Shown: positions 5,768 through 18,023, counted from the stretch's first letter. The stretch: DNA of 43,931 nucleotides from a virus (IMGVR_UViG_2541047897_000005), one strand, 5' to 3'. Notes: generated by a model from the sequence alone, not told the origin. Numbers and translations are program-made.

Positions 5768-6721
5768 TTATTCGAATGGAAGATCTATTTGCCTTTGAGG
5801 ATTCAACTGTTTTTTTACATGCTCAATTTCGAATATGGTTTTTATGGCATCTCCGATCATATATTGAGTTACTTTTAAATCTACAAGTAACATATCACCT
5901 TTAGAAAAATTTAAGGTGTTGTTATCAATATCGCTGATGAATTTCTGGTCTTTTATTTCAGCCAAAAAGCTACTGGCACCATCAGAAAACCGCCACCGGC
6001 TTCCTTCATTGAAGGAAATATTTTTAATTTGAAGGGCTTTCTCTACTGTGTACTCTGAAATTATTGATTCTGCTGGTAGATTGACTTTGAAATAATGTGC
6101 TTCTTGCTTGTTGATCGTCATGAATGTCAAACCATCATCGACAGTAGAGGCAAAGCTGTCAATGCCTTCCTGCTCTAATGGCTTACTTATAACTTCTTGT
6201 AATGAAGAGCGAAGTTTAATATTTTTATAAAGTTCAATAACGTTACTGTCGTAGATCTCGCTTTCGTCATCAACAAAGACTTCGATGTTGCTATCAGGCA
6301 AATTGTGTAATTTTTTTATTTTCCTTGGACCTATCCATTTTATCAGTTGAATTAGGCCTTTGCATATTTTTTCTTTAGAACCAGGACAGAGTCCAATAAA
6401 AGCAATCAAATTCGCAGCGGCTGTTGCTGAATCGCCGGATAAAAAATCAACAGCCTGTTTGAACCAAGATGTAGATGAGGCAACCAGATCTATTCCAAAT
6501 GAGCCAGCTTTAAATGATGCATTGACTTTTACAGAAACAACAGTCTTGTTTCCGTAGAGAGTTTTACCGGCTTCCTCTAATGCATCTGATAGTGATAGAA
6601 GGGCAGGAGCAAGGTCTCGCACGTTCATTTCATGCGTTTCCAGTGCCGGACCGTCGTATACTATCCTGAACTTCATATCATTGGTTTCCGAATTGTTGCC
6701 CGCATCCATTATGGCATTCAC
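5768..6721 (-). CDS. Hypothetical 317-aa protein at the rexAB-equivalent locus; candidate superinfection-exclusion/defence gene
   Basis: Long ORF between the repressor gene and OL/PL; visibly AT-rich, Lys/Ile/Asn/Ser-rich codon use unlike flanking phage genes; own terminator; no recognisable motif. Confidence 0.8.
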   Translation of the reverse strand: MNAIMDAGNNSETNDMKFRIVYDGPALETHEMNVRDLAPALLSLSDALEEAGKTLYGNKTVVSVKVNASFKAGSFGIDLVASSTSWFKQAVDFLSGDSATAAANLIAFIGLCPGSKEKICKGLIQLIKWIGPRKIKKLHNLPDSNIEVFVDDESEIYDSNVIELYKNIKLRSSLQEVISKPLEQEGIDSFASTVDDGLTFMTINKQEAHYFKVNLPAESIISEYTVEKALQIKNISFNEGSRWRFSDGASSFLAEIKDQKFISDIDNNTLNFSKGDMLLVDLKVTQYMIGDAIKTIFEIEHVKKQLNPQRQIDLPFE

Positions 6722-6782: not shown

Positions 6783-7472
6783 CTACCCATGCTTCCTATA
6801 CGTCTGCGGCATGCTCCCAATAACCTTACCGAAGATGAACACCCGGTTCATCTCGTCTTTCTCGATCGGGTCCCAAGGTGAGTAGCTCTTGTTATCAGAG
6901 ATAACCAGCAGCTTATCCTTCATCATTTGCAGACGCTTTACATGGGCTGTGTCGTCGTACAGAAACGCATAGATACCATCACCGTCGAAAGATTTAACCG
7001 TGATATCAACGAACAGCAGCTCACCTGGTTCGATCGTTCCTGACATGCTGTCACCGCGTACGTTAATGATACGGATATTTTCCGCCTTCCTGCCATCGAA
7101 CATGTGACGAGCATCGTCAAACGAATACTCAACCGAACGTAGAACTTCTACAAACTCACGGTTGATGACTCCCGGCCCGGCACTCACTTCGATATCAAGA
7201 ACGTCAATCTTAAAGTATTTGGAATGGCTGACAGTTGTTTGTATTGGTTGCACTGTACTGTCTGACATATTTCCAACGCCAGAAGATAACCATTCTGCGC
7301 GCACACCCAAAGCGTTCGCGATCTCCACGATTTTAGTTGTTTGGTTAGCTTTCCCTGTTTCGATTTTCTGAATAGCTGCTTGGCTAACCCCGACCAAATC
7401 CCCAAGCGCCTTTTGTGTAAGGCCTCGCGCTAATCTGGCTTCTTTAAGTCTTTCTGAGAGTGTTGTTTTCAT
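6783..7472 (-). CDS. cI: CI-type prophage repressor, HTH plus S24 LexA-like autopeptidase domain (229 aa from ATG 7472)
   Basis: N-terminal HTH (LTQKALGDLVGVSQAAIQKIETG), Ala-Gly cleavage site (VSAGPG), GDSM serine and VKRL lysine motifs; divergent from cro. Confidence 0.9.
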   Translation of the reverse strand: MKTTLSERLKEARLARGLTQKALGDLVGVSQAAIQKIETGKANQTTKIVEIANALGVRAEWLSSGVGNMSDSTVQPIQTTVSHSKYFKIDVLDIEVSAGPGVINREFVEVLRSVEYSFDDARHMFDGRKAENIRIINVRGDSMSGTIEPGELLFVDITVKSFDGDGIYAFLYDDTAHVKRLQMMKDKLLVISDNKSYSPWDPIEKDEMNRVFIFGKVIGSMPQTYRKHG

Positions 7473-7576
7473 AGTCCAAATGTACAACCAAGGTTTTATT
7501 TCATCAAACGAAAATGGTTGTTGACTAAAAACAACCATGGTTTTAATCTTGATTCAAATTAACCACGGAGGTTGTT
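7473..7576 (+). promoter_or_regulatory. OR region: PR for cro with overlapping operators, and probable PRM
   Basis: TTGACT (7521-7526), 17-nt spacer, TAATCT (7544-7549); 9-bp inverted repeat ATGGTTGTT/AACAACCAT (7514-7522, 7530-7538) and perfect palindrome AACCATGGTT (7533-7542); GGAGG RBS before cro. Confidence 0.6.
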
Positions 7577-9432: not shown

Positions 9433-10130
9433 AAAACATCGCCGCACAGATGATTAACTTTGACCGTGAGCAGATGCGCCGGATCGCCAACAACATGCCG
9501 GAACAGTACGACGAAAAGCCGCAGGTACAGCAGGTAGCGCAGATAATCAACGGTGTATTCAGCCAGTTACTGGCAACTTTCCCGGCGAGCCTGGCTAATC
9601 GTGACCAGAACGAACTGAACGAAATCCGCCGCCAGTGGGTTCTGGCTTTCCGGGAAAACGGGATCACCACGATGGAACAGGTGAGCGCCGGAATGCGTGT
9701 TGCCCGTCGGCAGAATAGACCATTTCTGCCATCACCCGGGCAGTTTGTTGCATGGTGCCGGGAAGAAGCATCCGTTACCGCCGGGCTGCCAAACGTCAGC
9801 GAGCTGGTTGATATGGTTTACGAGTATTGCCGGAAGCGTGGTCTGTATCCGGATGCAGAGTCTTATCCGTGGAAATCAAACGCGCACTACTGGCTGGTTA
9901 CCAACCTGTATCAGAACATGCGGGCCAATGCGTTGACTGACGCGGAATTACGGCGCAAGGCTGCCGATGAACTGTCCTGTATGACCGCGCGAATTAACCG
10001 TGGTGAGGCGATACCTGAACCAGTAAAACAACTTCCTGTCATGGGCGGTAGACCTCTAAATCGTGCACAGGCTCTGGCGAAGATCGCAGAAATCAAAGCT
10101 AAGTTTGGGCTGAAAGGAGCAATTGTATGA
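9429..10130 (+). CDS. P: Replication protein P (DnaB helicase loader), 233 aa
   Basis: Recalled near-identity to lambda P; ATGA overlap with the O stop. Confidence 0.95.
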   Translation: MKNIAAQMINFDREQMRRIANNMPEQYDEKPQVQQVAQIINGVFSQLLATFPASLANRDQNELNEIRRQWVLAFRENGITTMEQVSAGMRVARRQNRPFLPSPGQFVAWCREEASVTAGLPNVSELVDMVYEYCRKRGLYPDAESYPWKSNAHYWLVTNLYQNMRANALTDAELRRKAADELSCMTARINRGEAIPEPVKQLPVMGGRPLNRAQALAKIAEIKAKFGLKGAIV

Positions 10131-10429
10131 CGGGCAAAGAGGCAATTATTCATTACTTGGGGACTCATAAGAACTTCTGTGCGCAGGACGTTGCCGCGGT
10201 AACAGGTGCAACCGTAACCAGCATAAATCAGGCTGCGGCTAAAATGCCGCGGGCAGGAATCCTGGTCGTTGATGGTAAGGTCTGGCGAACGGTGTATTAT
10301 CGGTTCGCTACCAGAGAAGAATGGGAAGGAAAGGTGAGCACGAATTTGATTTTTAAGGAGTGTCGCCAGAGTGCCGCGATGAAACGGGTATTGAGGGTAT
10401 ATAAAAGAACATCAATGGGTACACAATGA
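10127..10429 (+). CDS. ren: Ren (100 aa)
   Basis: Recalled near-identity to lambda Ren (MTGKEAIIHYLGTH...). Confidence 0.9.
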   Translation: MTGKEAIIHYLGTHKNFCAQDVAAVTGATVTSINQAAAKMPRAGILVVDGKVWRTVYYRFATREEWEGKVSTNLIFKECRQSAAMKRVLRVYKRTSMGTQ

Positions 10430-10496
10430 TGAAACAGGTGAGTTGAGTTCAAACTGTAGTACAATTCTCTCCAGTTTGAACAGGAAAGAATATGCT

Positions 10497-10829
10497 ATGA
10501 ATCCTTATATTTATCTTGGTGGTGCAATACTTGCAGAGGTCATTGGTACAACCTTAATGAAGTTTTCAGAAGGTTTTACACGGTTATGGCCATCTGTTGG
10601 TACAATTATTTGTTATTGTGCATCATTCTGGTTATTAGCTCAGACGCTGGCTTATATTCCTACAGGGATTGCTTATGCTATCTGGTCAGGAGTCGGTATT
10701 GTCCTGATTAGCTTACTATCATGGGGATTTTTCGGCCAACGGTTGGACCTGCCAGCCATTATAGGCATGATGTTGATTTGTGCCGGTGTGTTGGTTATTA
10801 ATTTATTGTCACGAAGCACACCACATTAA
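10497..10829 (+). CDS. emrE: EmrE, small multidrug resistance (SMR) efflux transporter (110 aa)
   Basis: Matches recalled E. coli EmrE (MNPYIYLGGAILAEVIGTTLMKFSEGF...); four TM segments; start at internal ATG 10497. Confidence 0.95.
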   Translation: MNPYIYLGGAILAEVIGTTLMKFSEGFTRLWPSVGTIICYCASFWLLAQTLAYIPTGIAYAIWSGVGIVLISLLSWGFFGQRLDLPAIIGMMLICAGVLVINLLSRSTPH

Positions 10830-11084
10830 AAATAATTTGTTTTTAAACGACTAAAATATGGAGGCTCGTATATTTATATGGGCCTCGTTTTATGCTTTTT
10901 GTTAATGTCTTTAGTTTTTATTCATTCTTTTGTGCTTTCAAGATTATGGTGTAAGAAAATTGCAATGCGATTATTGTTGTATATTCAAGATAATGTGACC
11001 TTAATTGTCTTTTTAAATAAAAATTAAACAAAAATCATATCTCACCACTAAGGTTTATAAAAGCATACTTTAGCAGGTGTCACC

Positions 11085-12611
11085 ATGAAAAAAGCCATAG
11101 CATATATGCGATTTTCATCACCAGGTCAGATGTCTGGTGATTCATTAAACCGCCAGAGAAGGCTTATTACTGAATGGCTAAAGGTAAATAGTGATTATTA
11201 CCTTGATACCGTAACGTATGAAGATTTGGGGTTAAGCGCATTCAATGGAAAGCATGCACAATCAGGAGCTTTTTCGGAATTTTTAGATGCTATAGAACAT
11301 GGTTATATATTGCCAGGGACTACATTGTTAGTTGAAAGTCTGGACAGACTTTCAAGAGAAAAAGTCGGTGAAGCGATTGAGCGTCTGAAATTGATTTTGA
11401 ATCACGGTATTGATGTTATAACTCTTTGCGATAATACAGTCTATAATATTGACTCATTGAATGAGCCATATTCATTAATAAAAGCCATACTTATAGCACA
11501 AAGGGCAAATGAAGAAAGCGAGATAAAGTCAAGTCGGGTTAAATTATCATGGAAGAAAAAACGGCAGGATGCACTGGAGTCAGGCACGATTATGACGGCT
11601 TCTTGTCCGAGATGGCTCTCATTGGATGACAAAAGAACGGCTTTTGTTCCAGACCCCGACAGGGTGAAAACTATTGAGCTAATTTTTAAACTCAGGATGG
11701 AAAGGCGCTCATTGAATGCAATAGCCAAGTATTTAAATGATCATGCTGTAAAGAATTTCTCAGGAAAAGAAAGTGCATGGGGACCTTCTGTAATTGAAAA
11801 ATTATTAGCGAATAAAGCTCTGATAGGTATATGCGTACCTTCATATCGTGCAAGAGGGAAAGGGATAAGTGAAATCGCTGGCTATTATCCCAGAGTCATA
11901 TCAGATGATTTGTTTTACGCTGTACAGGAAATTCGGTTGGCACCTTTTGGTATTAGCAATAGTAGCAAGAATCCTATGCTAATAAATCTACTTCGAACAG
12001 TTATGAAGTGTGAGGCTTGTGGTAATACCATGATTGTTCATGCGGTATCTGGAAGTTTGCATGGCTATTATGTTTGTCCGATGAGAAGATTACATCGATG
12101 TGACAGACCATCAATAAAAAGAGATTTGGTTGATTATAATATCATTAATGAATTGCTTTTTAATTGTAGCAAAATTCAACCAGTTGAAAACAAGAAAGAT
12201 GCTAATGAAACTTTAGAGTTAAAAATTATTGAGCTTCAGATGAAAATTAATAATTTAATCGTTGCATTGTCTGTCGCGCCTGAAGTTACCGCTATAGCAG
12301 AGAAAATAAGACTATTAGATAAGGAATTACGAAGGGCTTCGGTATCATTAAAAACTTTGAAGAGTAAAGGGGTGAGTTCACTTGGTGATTTTCATGCTAT
12401 TGATTTAACCAGTAAAAATGGGCGAGAGCTATGTCGTACACTTGCCTATAAAATATTCGAAAAAATTATAATTAATACAGATAATAAAACCTGTGATATC
12501 TATTTTATGAATGGCATTGTTTTTAAACACTATCCTTTAATGAAAGTAATATCCGCCCAGCAGGCGATAAGTACTCTTAAATATATGGTTGATGGTGAGA
12601 TTTATTTTTGA
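11085..12611 (+). CDS. ybcK: Large serine recombinase (508 aa), DLP12 YbcK-like
   Basis: N-terminal resolvase catalytic motif (YMRFSSPGQ...LNRQ), central recombinase region, Cys-rich zinc ribbon (CEACGN...C...C), C-terminal coiled coil; very AT-rich. Confidence 0.88.
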   Translation: MKKAIAYMRFSSPGQMSGDSLNRQRRLITEWLKVNSDYYLDTVTYEDLGLSAFNGKHAQSGAFSEFLDAIEHGYILPGTTLLVESLDRLSREKVGEAIERLKLILNHGIDVITLCDNTVYNIDSLNEPYSLIKAILIAQRANEESEIKSSRVKLSWKKKRQDALESGTIMTASCPRWLSLDDKRTAFVPDPDRVKTIELIFKLRMERRSLNAIAKYLNDHAVKNFSGKESAWGPSVIEKLLANKALIGICVPSYRARGKGISEIAGYYPRVISDDLFYAVQEIRLAPFGISNSSKNPMLINLLRTVMKCEACGNTMIVHAVSGSLHGYYVCPMRRLHRCDRPSIKRDLVDYNIINELLFNCSKIQPVENKKDANETLELKIIELQMKINNLIVALSVAPEVTAIAEKIRLLDKELRRASVSLKTLKSKGVSSLGDFHAIDLTSKNGRELCRTLAYKIFEKIIINTDNKTCDIYFMNGIVFKHYPLMKVISAQQAISTLKYMVDGEIYF

Positions 12612-12935
12612 GTAATAATCACTTTTTCAACCGTGCTATGGTATGAAAGTAAAGTGACTAATATGATATTAACTATCTTGAACGAAGCGCCCTGAGCTAT
12701 AGTTTTACTATAGGCACTGCCACTGGATGTTGGCATTCTTGCTCTAGTAGCTCAACAATACCCAATCACAAAACAATTCACTGATAACAAACTTTGTGCA
12801 CGTGCTTGGTTATGGCGAACAGGTGATGTTAACCTCTTGCCTGAATGCCACTCCACTTCATTAAGTATCTGAGCACCGAGAGGCTGGTCACGCCCCCATT
12901 AAAAATAATTTCTTTTGAATCGAGTGAAATAGGTT

Positions 12936-12962
12936 AGCCCGCATAAGTGCGGGCTGCTTTTT
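12936..12962 (+). terminator. Putative intrinsic terminator between ybcK and the esterase gene
   Basis: Hairpin AGCCCGC-loop-GCGGGCT followed by GCTTTTT. Confidence 0.45.
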
Positions 12963-14004
12963 ACAGGTCAGCGTTTGTTTTTTGTTGTTGGGTAGCGGTT
13001 TTTATGGGGGTTCCCAGGTTTTTAGTAAACCACTCAACAACTCTGTTTATAATAATTGGCTGATACCATGTATTATCGCCATGCTCAGCCCCTTCTACCA
13101 GAACGTACTCAGCGTTATCGCCGTTCTTCTTCAACATCCTGAATAGTTTGGCGCTTTGCTCAGGTGAAACCAGAGTGTCTTTGCTACCATGCATAATAAG
13201 AAATGGGGGTTTTACTCCTTTCATATGTCCGATTGGACTGGCGTTTAGCGCTTTTTCTTTTGACGCTGTTATGGGGGCTCCCGCAAAACTTCTGAATGCA
13301 GGGCCATTGATCATTAAGGCTTCGGTTACGGCAGGAGATCGATGAACCTCCTGCACTGATTCAGGGAACCCCTCGCCAATATTCAACAAGTCAGAAATCC
13401 CATAAAGTGTGGCAACTGCCTGAACATCTGCTGATTGCTGAAGAAAGTCACCTTTATTAAAGGTTTTGTCACCATTTGTAGTTCCCATCATCTGGGCAAG
13501 CCATCCACCGGCAGAGTCACCCAGAACTCCGATTCTTTGAGGATCAATCCCATAATCGCTGGCATGTTCTCTCAAGTAACGTATTGCAGCTTTCCCATCC
13601 TCAACTGGTGCTGGAAATGTATCAGGAATTGTTCTGTATTCTACAGCGGCCACAACAAAACCAGCTTCAGCCAGAGCCATTCTCATTTCAATAAATTTGT
13701 CATGTTCAGAAGACATGAATCCGCCGCCGGGATAATAAATAATGGCTGGTTTTAAATCATTTGTTCGCGGGACAAGAACTGACATGTGAAGCTGTCTGAC
13801 AGAACGAGTTCCTTTTATCTGGGAATAAACAACATCACCAATGAGATCGACCTGGTTTCTGGTGGGTGAAACACTAATGATATCTGCACCCGGGGTGTAA
13901 CCAGGAAGATTAGTCTGGACAGGTGTTGCACAACTCCCGACCGACATGGCCATTGACATACCATACAATAGTGTTGCAGATGATAATATCTTGTTAATTT
14001 TCAT
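12961..14004 (-). CDS. Secreted alpha/beta-hydrolase (esterase/lipase family), 347 aa
   Basis: N-terminal signal peptide with possible lipobox (MSVGSC), HGGG-type motif (YPGGGF), nucleophile elbow GDSAGG, C-terminal His/Asp motifs; AT-rich. Confidence 0.85.
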   Translation of the reverse strand: MKINKILSSATLLYGMSMAMSVGSCATPVQTNLPGYTPGADIISVSPTRNQVDLIGDVVYSQIKGTRSVRQLHMSVLVPRTNDLKPAIIYYPGGGFMSSEHDKFIEMRMALAEAGFVVAAVEYRTIPDTFPAPVEDGKAAIRYLREHASDYGIDPQRIGVLGDSAGGWLAQMMGTTNGDKTFNKGDFLQQSADVQAVATLYGISDLLNIGEGFPESVQEVHRSPAVTEALMINGPAFRSFAGAPITASKEKALNASPIGHMKGVKPPFLIMHGSKDTLVSPEQSAKLFRMLKKNGDNAEYVLVEGAEHGDNTWYQPIIINRVVEWFTKNLGTPIKTATQQQKTNADL

Positions 14005-14451
14005 GTTTTACATGCCTTGACTTATCGGATGAAATTCTCTTACTGAATTTAACGGCAGTTTAATAGCAGTACAACTCGTGGTAGCTAGGGAAATATCCCA
14101 GTCGTGGTTAAGGTTGTACTTGACGGCTATTATTTCAACAATGCTTAAAGTGAGAGCTTAAGGTTATGCGTATGTTTTACAGTCCGAGTAGATTCTGACC
14201 AATAGCTTCTTTGTATAATTCTGTCAGAAATAAATCTTGGCTTGCATGAAGTTTGAGACCTTATCTTGTTTGATTATGAATAATCAATTCGCCATAATTG
14301 TATCACCGGAGCCTGAACAACTCCTGTGACTTCTGCGCTAAACGGGGACGTTTATGCGCACATACAATCCAACCTATCTTCTCCATTCACAGATGCAGAA
14401 ATGCACCTGCGATTTTTTGCATCCAGCGTTTGGCCTCTGCGGAGGTGAATC

Positions 14452-14907
14452 GTGAACCTCCCACAAGATGGCATCAAATTGCATCGCGGCAACTTCACCG
14501 CTTTCGGCCAGCAGATCCAGCCTTATCTGGAGGACGGAAAATGCTTTCGCATGGTGCTTAAACCGTGGCGTGAGAAACGCAGTCTTTCCCAGAATGCACT
14601 CAGCCATATGTGGTACAGCGAAATCAGTGAATACCTCATCAGCAGGGGGAAATCGTTCGCTACCGCAGCATGGGTAAAAGATGCTCTCAAACACACATAC
14701 CTCGGTTATGAAACCAAGGACCTGGTTGATGTCGTAACCGGCGAAATCACTACTATCCAGTCGTTACGCCATACCTCCGATCTTGATACCGGAGAGATGT
14801 ATGTCTTCCTGTGTAAGGTTGAAGCCTGGGCGATGAATATTGGCTGCCACCTGACTATTCCGCAGCGCTGCGAGTTCCAGCTGCTGCGCGACAAGCAGGA
14901 GGCGTAA
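14452..14907 (+). CDS. ybcN: NinB/Orf-family recombination mediator (151 aa, GTG start), DLP12 YbcN-like
   Basis: GGAGG RBS; RSLSQN motif resembling lambda NinB; first gene of the nin region. Confidence 0.8.
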
Positions 14908-16513: not shown

Positions 16514-17596
16514 TTAGAACTGATAAACCAGACCTACAGCGACGATGTCGTCGGTATCAATACCAGCTGTTTTGGTAAACTTACTATCGTCAATTAAGTT
16601 GATTTTGTAATCAACAAAAGTGGACATGTTTTTATTAAAGTAGTAAGTAGCACCGACATCGACATACTTGACTAAGTCTCGGTCACCATGAACACCAAGG
16701 TCTTTACCTTTTGACTGAAGGTAAGCAACAGATGGTCGCAGACCGAAGTCAAACTGATATTGTGCTACTGCTTCAAAGTTTTGTGCTTTGTTTGCAATAT
16801 GGTTATTACCAAAAACGGTCATATTCTGAGTTTCAGAATATGTGGTAGCCAGATAGATATTGTTCGCATCATATTTCAGGCCTGCAGCCCATACTTCCGC
16901 ATTTTTGCCGGAGGCATTGAATTTGCTCTTACCATAGGCGACCTGACCGTCAGTGCGATCTGATTTAGCATAGGTTGCACCCACGCCGAATCCTTCATAC
17001 TCATAAGTAGTGGAGAAACCGAAACCATCACCATTGGCTTCAGTTACGTCAGTGCGGTCATTTTTACCCTGATACTGAGCAGCAAAGTTCAGGCCATCGA
17101 CCAGACCAAAGAAGTCGTTGTTACGATAAGTTGCAACACCAGTAGTGCGACCAGTCATGAACACATCTGTTTGGGTCCAGGTATCACCACCGAATTCTGG
17201 CAGGACGTCAGTCCACGCACCGATGTCGTATGCTACACCGTAGTTACGGCCGTAATCGATTGAGCCGTAATCACCAAATTTCAGGCCTGCAAATGCAAGA
17301 CGGGTTTTGTCTTTGGAAGAACCTTGAGATTCAGCACGGTTGCCTTTGAATTCATATTCCCACTGACCGAAACCAGTCAGTTGATCGTTGATTTGGGTTT
17401 CACCTTTGAAGCCAAGACGGGCATAAGTAGTATCACCATCATCTGCATCATTAGAGGAAAAGTAGTGCTTGGCATTAACTTTCCCGTATAGATCCAGCTT
17501 GTTACTGTCTTTATTATAAATTTCAGCTGCCTGAGCAGACATCGCCATCAGTACTGATGCAGCTACAGCAGAAATTGCCACTGTTAATTTTTTCAT
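16514..17596 (-). CDS. nmpC: Outer-membrane general porin, NmpC/Lc/OmpC family (360 aa), apparently intact
   Basis: Signal peptide ([23 protein letters not shown]), OmpC/OmpF-like sequence throughout, C-terminal ...VGLVYQF. Confidence 0.95.
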
Positions 17597-18023
17597 TGTA
17601 CGCCCTTTTTTTTGAACTATTATTAAAAAATGATGTCACTGCGCGATAAATATTCATCTAATCAATGCGATTATTTCAAGATGTAAGTTTTAGTTTCTCA
17701 TTTAATTTGTGAAGTAGATCTCTATTTTTATCTGAACCTTTTCTATCTAATCCTATTCATGGCTCTTGTTTGAACGAAAATAAATCTATTAGCTAATTTA
17801 TATTAATGGCACTTATTTATAAGCGCTCTATAATTCTTTAGCTTAATTTAAACAAACTAAAAATAACATCGGAAATTATTCATTGGTTATTTGTTGAAGT
17901 TTTCTTATGTATTTGTGGTGGTGTTTTGAACACTCGGTGGCATTCTCACAAATATCATTTAGTAGTTTACGTACGTAAAAAATTGGTTATGCTGTTAAGA
18001 GTGGTTACTTCGTCACACAGCTT

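Follow-up and report, generated by a model that had tools for sequence, protein, structure and literature searches.

In lambda, only 73 bp lie between ren and ninB. In IMGVR_UViG_2541047897_000005, a 43,931-nt stretch of viral DNA (the window, in which all coordinates below are counted) that is filled by a complete DLP12-like lambdoid prophage, the same place holds AT-rich DNA with an efflux pump gene, emrE, a large serine recombinase (LSR) gene, ybcK, and, convergent with these, a gene for an exported esterase. How did this DNA come to be assembled here, and did the recombinase have a hand in it? A sequence-only reading of the locus, which was right in setting it against the direct passage of lambda from ren to the nin region, had seen an AT-rich moron island here and, in the recombinase, a possible relic or driver of a cassette that inserted into the phage. 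The analysis described below points elsewhere: in all likelihood, 10430-14268 is made up of four independently circulating accessory modules that have been stacked by ordinary lambdoid mosaicism, and not by YbcK.

The island and its limits

The composition of the DNA bears out its description as a moron island. The GC content of 10430-14268 is 0.387, compared with 0.503 for the whole window, and at third codon positions emrE, ybcK and the esterase gene (0.33, 0.29 and 0.37, respectively) stand well apart from P (0.59) and ybcN (0.63). This is accessory DNA of deviant GC content that lies between conserved phage genes and is missing in relatives, as phage morons are. The low-GC segment had been drawn as 10430-14451; it is real, but its right edge is at 14268/14269, since the remaining 14269-14451 contains a promoter-like site and ylcH, which belong to the conserved nin block.

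As to gene content, open reading frames (ORFs) and Pfam scans agree with the annotation that RefSeq gives for the closest relatives; they confirm the placement of ren, emrE, ybcK, the minus-strand esterase gene and ybcN. (Features of the island and its borders are on the plus strand unless otherwise stated.) The last conserved gene to the left is ren (10127-10429; 'protein ren' in the LF82 annotation), and variants of the slot drop out of homology on this side at 10119-10420. The emrE module occupies 10420-10837 (coding sequence 10497-10829) and is followed by a terminator-like hairpin (10861-10886) with an 11-bp stem and then a T run. The 508-codon ybcK (11085-12611) is preceded, in its leader, by a 49-aa hydrophobic small ORF, ylcJ (10878-11027; PF23688 YlcJ, E 1e-29), a fourth gene that had been omitted from an otherwise correct list of emrE, recombinase and esterase. 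The 347-codon esterase gene is at 12961-14004 on the minus strand, in a module extending over 12957-14268. At the right junction of the slot (14269-14298), a -35/-10-like sequence, TTGATT-17-CATAAT at 14270-14298, corresponds to the putative -35/-10 annotated upstream of orf33/orf151 in the phage 82 record X92588. The first conserved nin genes, ylcH (14354-14455, from its translation) and the ninB-like ybcN (14452-14907; PF05772, NCBIfam PRK09741), lie outside the island. The site is a hypervariable lambdoid slot between the replication genes (P/ren) and the ylcH-ninB promoter, with modules that would read, from left to right, as emrE with its terminator, the ylcJ leader with ybcK, a scar (described below), and the convergent lipoprotein esterase gene with its own terminator.

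The slot and its gene order are shared with DLP12 of E. coli K-12 (renD-emrE-ylcJ-ybcK-ybcL-ybcM-ylcH-ybcN). Homology runs from ren to 12650, 39 nt beyond the ybcK stop codon, at 96.8% identity and resumes from 14269 at 95.2%. In between, the window has 1,618 bp (12651-14268) in place of 1,813 bp in K-12 that include ybcL-ybcM, so that the proposed difference from DLP12 holds to the base pair: where K-12 has ybcL-ybcM, the window has the stump of a P22AR gene, an emrE tail and the esterase gene. In K-12, IS3 splits ren and IS5 splits nmpC, whereas the prophage of the window is intact. DLP12 is integrated at argU; the closest annotated relative of the window prophage is at icd.

A recombination scar between ybcK and the esterase gene

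The DNA between ybcK and the esterase gene had been taken for one of several AT-rich intergenic regions. It is no plain spacer: a pseudogene stump lies in it, together with a duplicate of the 3' end of emrE. The stump (12651-12891) is that of an antirepressor-like gene, of which it retains P22AR C-terminal domain sequence with a frameshift and an internal stop, and it is truncated at 12891. It matches the sequence 3' of ybcK in strain SA53-3, with nucleotide homology extending to 12891, and an intact P22AR protein, when used as a tblastn query, aligns to 12719-12891 in two frames and across a stop codon. Next to the stump, at 12894-12945, is the second copy of a 52-nt imperfect direct repeat whose first copy is at 10821-10872 (40 of 52 positions identical, with a perfect core, CATTAAAAATAATTT). 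Copy 1 comprises the end of emrE (Pro-His-stop) and its 3' untranslated region as far as the terminator hairpin. Copy 2 likewise encodes Pro-His-stop, differing by a synonymous change; it is the relic of a second emrE, of which it keeps the last codons and 3' untranslated region. It runs into a GC-rich hairpin between the convergent genes (12935-12956, assigned to neither strand; T run, and a 9-bp stem of which 6 pairs are GC), which adjoins the stop codon of the esterase gene and is probably a bidirectional terminator.

This is the sole significant repeat: 60 Markov shuffles gave a mean of 30.9 and a maximum of 33 matches in 52, and none reached 40. It lies inside the island. Repeats at the island's boundaries, which had been anticipated near 10430-10500 and 14005-14450, were searched for and not found, the direct-repeat search at the outer boundaries yielding only 12-18-nt two-copy matches, as chance gives.

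Judged by its sequence, the spacer is a recombination scar, in which a dead antirepressor-like stump has been fused to a second emrE tail. The combination of stump and second emrE tail predicts a parental arrangement, ren-emrE-esterase, which was looked for with a chimeric query joining emrE to 12894-13400. The predicted emrE-esterase form exists: it is found as a single alignment with 99.2-99.4% identity in two genomes, F467 and Rb-50, in which the copy-2 sequence directly continues an intact emrE. The immunity regions of the F467 and Rb-50 prophages differ. The simplest history of the scar is the joining of two phage types. As the scar and the natural variants suggest, a phage with the order ren-emrE-ylcJ-ybcK-P22AR would have been joined illegitimately to one with the order ren-emrE-esterase-ylcH, and the join would have spread afterwards by homologous exchange via the conserved flanks.

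Some observations count against this history. Recombination between the two copies of the repeat could have given rise to F467 and Rb-50 by deletion, in which case they are not parental forms: their junction reads CCACATT, as in copy 1, while copy 2 of the window reads CCCCATT. (The flanks of both are ~3.4% diverged from the window, which favours independent lineages without proving them.) The other observation concerns the second emrE that most E. coli carry next to fliE, in the arrangement emrE-ybcL-ybcM without ylcJ-ybcK. Compared with this arrangement, DLP12 of K-12 contains 2,083 bp more, a cleanly delimited ylcJ-ybcK segment with its left edge at 10837/10838. A clean indel with the same left edge can be read as a discrete insertion; that reading is weighed below.

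Variation of the slot

Surveys of E. coli genomes and phages show how freely the contents of this slot vary. Among 5,426 complete E. coli genomes, 1,424 carry ybcK (near-full-length in 1,398) and 681 (~13%) carry the esterase gene, many of these being human extra-intestinal isolates, ST131 included. The whole island is found in only 172, so that the esterase gene occurs without ybcK in roughly 500. A contiguous emrE-ylcJ-ybcK is present in 1,399 genomes, that is, in essentially all ybcK carriers.

The contents of the slot were examined in a spread sample of 4,543 matching genomes and 165 phages. In some cases, emrE-ylcJ-ybcK is followed by ybcL-ybcM; in others, what comes next is a P22AR gene (alone or accompanied by other ORFs) or, in O157:H7, a 254-bp remnant. 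Other fillings are emrE with an unrelated 1.3-kb gene, two small ORFs alone, and an acyltransferase with a lipoprotein; elsewhere SNIPE, PD-lambda-1 or HEPN genes take the place (P22AR is also found with HEPN). The slot can also be filled by an inverse autotransporter gene and then, directly, the esterase gene, without ren, emrE or ybcK. In the blood isolate MS20645 (L005, 2060-7048), the autotransporter is a 1,302-aa protein of the intimin/invasin type whose gene replaces ren-emrE-ylcJ-ybcK and abuts the esterase module; in this context, which lacks ybcK, the module begins at 12957. One further variant, H261 (emrE-ylcJ without ybcK), proved uninformative, being the result of an IS1-mediated deletion into host DNA. 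A PADLOC scan of the proteins of the island itself gave no matches, and a role for them in anti-phage defence is therefore rejected.

Breakpoints were surveyed in 80 IMG/VR prophage contigs with ybcK. These loci have at least 10 slot lengths, ranging from 254 to 2,554 bp. Nearly all that reach that far have their right junction at 14269/14270 (one is at 14280), and the junction at 14269 is equally fixed in phages that lack ybcK (L005, L006, L008 and L095). On the left, in contrast, homology downstream of ybcK is lost at 12650, 12677, 12686, 12866 or 12887-12891. An intact P22AR gene follows ybcK in 17 of the 80 loci. The recombinase is thus not the driver that it had been suggested to be: the breakpoints to its right are staggered over 12650-12891, the right junction is independent of ybcK, the esterase module (from 12957) moves without it, and no att-like repeats mark the modules.

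Almost everything about the locus conforms to the phage-moron and lambdoid nin-region mosaic concept, which is reportedly that of Hendrix and colleagues: deviant GC content, junctions at gene boundaries, terminators that belong to the genes themselves, transcription while the prophage is repressed, and presence or absence in relatives are all seen here. The island is unlike a plain moron in that several modules are stacked and one junction keeps a scar (stump and emrE tail) that records the join.

The arrangement is already known, being present and annotated in public phage genomes. Chromosomal prophages of KC-Dl-1, MS20658 and other E. coli strains match the 4.85-kb region at 100% identity; the LF82 prophage integrated at icd (LF82 prophage 2, isolated as phage Perceval, OV696612) does so at 98.5%. 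Together with Perceval, phages 4A7, Lambda_4C10, 1W, 3W and PhiR47_2 match the whole 4.85-kb query at 98.4-98.5% identity, and phage D2 matches 96% of it at 98.0%. The genes are labelled 'Multidrug transporter EmrE', 'Large serine recombinase' and 'alpha/beta hydrolase' in Perceval; across the isolated phages the labels are EmrE, large serine recombinase or YbcK, and alpha/beta hydrolase or esterase. These phages differ from the window by a few per cent in sequence.

YbcK, an intact large serine recombinase

YbcK is a complete LSR with Resolvase (PF00239, E 8e-19), Recombinase (PF07508, E 2e-14) and Zn_ribbon_recom (PF13408, E 8e-8) domains. When YbcK is aligned with 19 homologues, no variation is seen at catalytic residues R9, S11, Q15, D19, R23, Q24, D87, R88, R91 and E143/E144 or at C309, C312, C331 and C339 of the zinc ribbon; a profile search aligns S11 with the catalytic Ser motif of TP901-1. 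The AlphaFold (AF2) model (pLDDT 81) has, besides the catalytic and recombinase domains and the zinc ribbon, the long E-helix and a coiled-coil hairpin, the latter predicted at residues 368-427 (helices 368-397 and 401-427). Foldseek matches this model to full-length serine-integrase/att complexes (E 1e-18). YbcK is assigned to PHROG 95, 'integrase'. A phmmer search against PDB sequences gave no match, serine integrases being recovered by profile and fold searches only.

Phage large serine integrases such as those of phiC31, Bxb1, TP901-1 and A118/LI share with YbcK the order of domains, the Ser/Arg/Asp set, the zinc ribbon and the coiled-coil hairpin, and match it over the full length in Foldseek (E 1e-18 to 1e-12), albeit at only 14-19% identity. 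The resolvase-type catalytic domain, the Recombinase domain with its four-Cys zinc ribbon and the predicted hairpin place YbcK among the LSRs. What it lacks is the setting of a serine integrase, with adjacent att sites and a position at a prophage/host junction: its gene is surrounded by others of the early-right operon, in a phage that uses a tyrosine integrase, no att site is recognised and no recombination directionality factor is identified. Att-like repeats were searched for around ybcK and none was found; none bounds any module of the island. A 16-nt inverted repeat bracketing most of ybcK (11186-11201 and 12612-12627) is attributable to chance, one such repeat being observed and 0.97 being the mean of shuffled sequences.

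Residues 348-508 of YbcK make up a PHROG family of their own, phrog_2371 (E 2e-107), to which no function is assigned, and this separate family suggests that truncated or separately called versions of YbcK exist in phage genomes. The C-terminal third comprises the coiled coil and an alpha/beta module at 444-507.

A literature search for a function of ybcK brought up only its Rho-dependent silencing and sabinene tolerance, and no report of recombination activity or of a target. In K-12, a Rho/NusG-dependent terminator in the leader holds its expression low (PMC4150792); tolerance of sabinene is increased by over-expression of ybcK and decreased by its deletion (PMC7181518). ylcJ spans the ybcK leader, which publications on K-12 regard as untranslated and Rho-terminated, and the ATG of ylcJ (10878) falls inside the emrE terminator hairpin at 10861-10886.

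The homologues of YbcK reside in two kinds of place. Those with 50-59% identity are found at prophage ends, which is the classical position of an integrase: in Atlantibacter, facing the 3' end of ssrA, in Ewingella at host metabolic genes, and in Yersinia at another prophage. Others are in the nin region of lambdoid prophages, as in Atlantibacter sp. RC6 (L011), where the order is O-P-...-C5 methylase-LSR-DinI-DUF1367-NinG-Q, and in a metagenomic contig (L099; LSR-DinI-DUF1367-NinG-Q). The two settings are joined by a close pair. The nin-located Atlantibacter recombinase (L011, 7933-9530) has an 83% identical counterpart (L089, 7933-9530) that faces the 3' end of ssrA from the terminus of a different, Mu-tail-type prophage and is the apparent integrase of that prophage. 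The DNA of this pair is 76% identical from 68 nt upstream to the stop codon, with no shared att half-site downstream, which makes the gene itself (with 68 nt of upstream sequence) the unit of exchange. In Candidatus Pantoea alvi (L024, 7256-10859), a convergent YbcK homologue of 48% identity is situated between an intact P-like gene and a partial second copy, an arrangement suggesting the junction of two lambdoid segments. (An alternative description as a P gene split by insertion was discarded, the P gene being intact and the second copy partial.)

The YbcK family looks integrase-derived, and to that extent 'relic' was apt; it does not fit a gene that is intact in ~1,400 genomes and has a dN/dS of 0.065-0.085 (at dS up to 0.16, among six E. 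coli alleles, all intact). As modelled, YbcK is a structurally complete serine integrase that is kept by selection, and one that would most likely still catalyse site-specific recombination on a target outside the island. There is no sign of YbcK-mediated integration in E. coli: having emrE on its left in essentially every carrier (1,399 genomes with the contiguous block vs 1,398 with near-full-length ybcK), ybcK is not seen there at the left-hand end of a prophage. Possible targets may be a secondary attachment site used when the tyrosine-integrase site is occupied, a competing element, or the host genome. A more general proposal, which we put forward tentatively and consider possible rather than probable, is that YbcK-type integrases provide a conserved and selected nin accessory function (in E. 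coli, Atlantibacter sp. RC6 and the metagenomic contig) while remaining catalytically active on a target outside the island.

Other histories of the island

If YbcK did not drive the formation of the island as we have mapped it, might it nevertheless have done so in some other guise? ylcJ-ybcK and its tail could be an autonomous mobile element that inserted at the 3' end of emrE, with the 52-nt repeats as target duplication and with F467, Rb-50 and the fliE island as empty sites. Elements that are mobilized by an LSR only are known in other bacteria (recombinases of the Tn4451/Tn5397 type), a significant direct repeat flanks exactly 2,073 bp, precise 'empty' forms are known (F467 and Rb-50), and the 2,083-bp indel between DLP12 and the fliE-adjacent emrE-ybcL-ybcM independently has the same left edge. 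However, the right-hand 240 bp of the putative element are a piece of a gene that is intact in other phages, and are therefore a truncation scar and not a terminus. The right ends are also unlike one another, the K-12 segment ending in 309 bp of sequence unrelated to the window (and, 3' of ybcK, without match in any other variant). The repeat is just 77% identical, and what its second copy preserves is a true emrE tail that differs by a synonymous change; moreover, serine recombinases make 2-bp crossovers and do not generate duplications of ~50 bp. The ends are not inverted repeats, and none was found when the ends of the 2,083-bp K-12 segment were searched for them. Finally, ybcK is linked to emrE in essentially all E. 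coli carriers (1,399 vs 1,398). Without inverted-repeat ends, with a truncated gene on the right and with a single left context in E. coli, ylcJ-ybcK does not resemble a serine-recombinase transposon, and we regard insertion of such an element as very unlikely. A second possibility assigns to YbcK the capture of cassettes in the manner of an integron, with the slot on its right as the landing pad for the esterase gene or ybcL-ybcM. At least five types of cassette do follow ybcK, and in the K-12 comparison the most variable DNA starts just 39 nt past its stop codon. In an integron-like array, the bounds of the cassettes should recur, but the left breakpoints occupy at least five positions over 240 bp (12650-12891), and 12957 in addition, with no repeated site at the bounds; the right junction that is fixed, at 14269, is just as invariant in phages without ybcK, and the esterase gene is also found with the inverse autotransporter or directly after emrE, in both cases without ybcK. 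Cassette capture by YbcK is scarcely credible.

There remains the reading of ybcK as a decaying, functionless leftover of the integration module of a phage or satellite that once integrated here. This would suit the location of its 50-59% identical homologues at prophage termini next to host genes, as well as the fact that a tyrosine integrase and an excisionase are already encoded elsewhere in the host phage; the silencing of ybcK transcription by Rho in K-12 (PMC4150792) is also in keeping with it. But decay is not what the gene displays: it is full-length in 1,398 of 1,424 carriers, its dN/dS is low, its catalytic and zinc-binding residues are all invariant, and a complete integrase fold is confidently predicted. 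Furthermore, members of the YbcK family are found in the nin region of other lambdoid prophages (L011 and L099), and the ybcK counterpart in LF82 is transcribed and is induced in macrophages (PMC9928086). It is highly improbable that ybcK is such a leftover. The stacking of separately circulating modules by lambdoid recombination is the history that we retain.

The cargo genes and their expression

The esterase is a predicted 347-aa lipoprotein of the alpha/beta-hydrolase type (BD-FAE, PF20434, 151 bits). It had been described as secreted, and an export signal is indeed present; more specifically, this is a lipoprotein signal, with a PROSITE-type lipobox at Cys25 (...MSVGS|C25, Ala at +2). A GDSAG elbow (162-166) and a GGG oxyanion motif (93-95) identify the protein as a BD-FAE/HSL-type esterase, and the nearest solved structures are those of a metagenomic lipase (6nkf), a GH43-CE protein (6mly) and acetyl-xylan esterases. 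The BD-FAE domain, GDSAG and GGG are common to it and to other esterases of this type (the CE domain of 6mly, 6xyc, 6tkx and the Dickeya 'ferulate esterase'), from which it differs in being phage-borne and in having a lipoprotein signal. Chromosomal orthologues with 63-80% identity are found in Dickeya, Pectobacterium, Pantoea, Klebsiella and Rhizobium, and one orthologue is named ferulate esterase by its source. Among E. coli alleles, dN/dS is 0.07-0.25. The protein is probably an envelope-anchored carbohydrate acetyl or feruloyl esterase that deacylates glycans, and its relatives suggest, again at the level of sequence comparison, that it was acquired from plant-associated Enterobacterales.

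EmrE, which exports cationic toxic compounds, is an SMR multidrug efflux pump (PF00893, E 2e-35), and its assignment is secure: it scores 240.6 bits with NCBIfam NF042984 (cut-off 226), with residues 1-110 covered. The fliE-adjacent copy of the emrE module (the 10420-10837 stretch) is 91.6% identical to the phage copy, with dS ~0.4 and dN/dS 0.01-0.02 between the two emrE genes, and the fliE-adjacent emrE is older than the phage copy. (Examples of the fliE-adjacent emrE-ybcL-ybcM are at 5001-7144 of L007, from KMi006, and at 1974525-1976405 of LF82.)

Expression data come from LF82 and its prophage Perceval (98.5% identical), and not from the strain of the window. In LB, RNA-seq values (log2 fpkm) are 4.4-4.5 for emrE, 3.1-3.2 for the recombinase and 4.1-4.4 for the hydrolase, while the silent neighbours O, P, NinB and NinE are at 2.3-2.9, below the genes of the island; in DMEM and in macrophages the values of the three genes are higher, reaching 7.4, 5.8 and 7.3, respectively, and all are flagged as up-regulated (PMC9928086 and its supplements). 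EmrE is mentioned there as an induced Perceval moron. Expression from a repressed prophage, together with the terminator-like hairpins at 10861-10886 and 12935-12956, is characteristic of morons. Read across from LF82 to the window, these data show emrE, the recombinase gene and the esterase gene behaving as lysogen-expressed morons.

Other accessory DNA in the window

The window has further patches of low GC content. One of these (0.36-0.38) contains a 317-aa ORF (5768-6721, minus) directly downstream of the gene for a cI-like repressor with HTH and S24 peptidase domains (6783-7538), in the position that rexAB has in lambda. The ORF product is without a Pfam match; its matches are to PHROG 3243 and, in PADLOC, to a family of candidate defence proteins, PDC-S42 (E 3e-86). 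The top-expressed moron of Perceval lies in the LF82 region that corresponds to 5768-6721. Another stretch (17501-18000, GC 0.30) follows an nmpC/ompC-like porin gene (16514-17596, minus) and precedes the lysis genes. The porin gene is whole in the window; its K-12 counterpart is the one split by IS5.

Significance

At base-pair resolution, the 'island' resolves into four modules with separate histories. The scar between ybcK and the esterase gene, together with the occurrence in nature of the parental form that it predicts, illustrates neatly how lambdoid mosaics come about. The biochemistry of the esterase may also merit attention. The uncharacterised ybcK, found in one in four complete E. 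coli genomes, K-12 included, encodes a complete serine integrase that is under strong purifying selection, despite being carried by phages that integrate by means of a tyrosine integrase. Natural prophages with and without ybcK and with otherwise matching flanks (the type of the window on the one hand, F467 and Rb-50 on the other) make its role testable.

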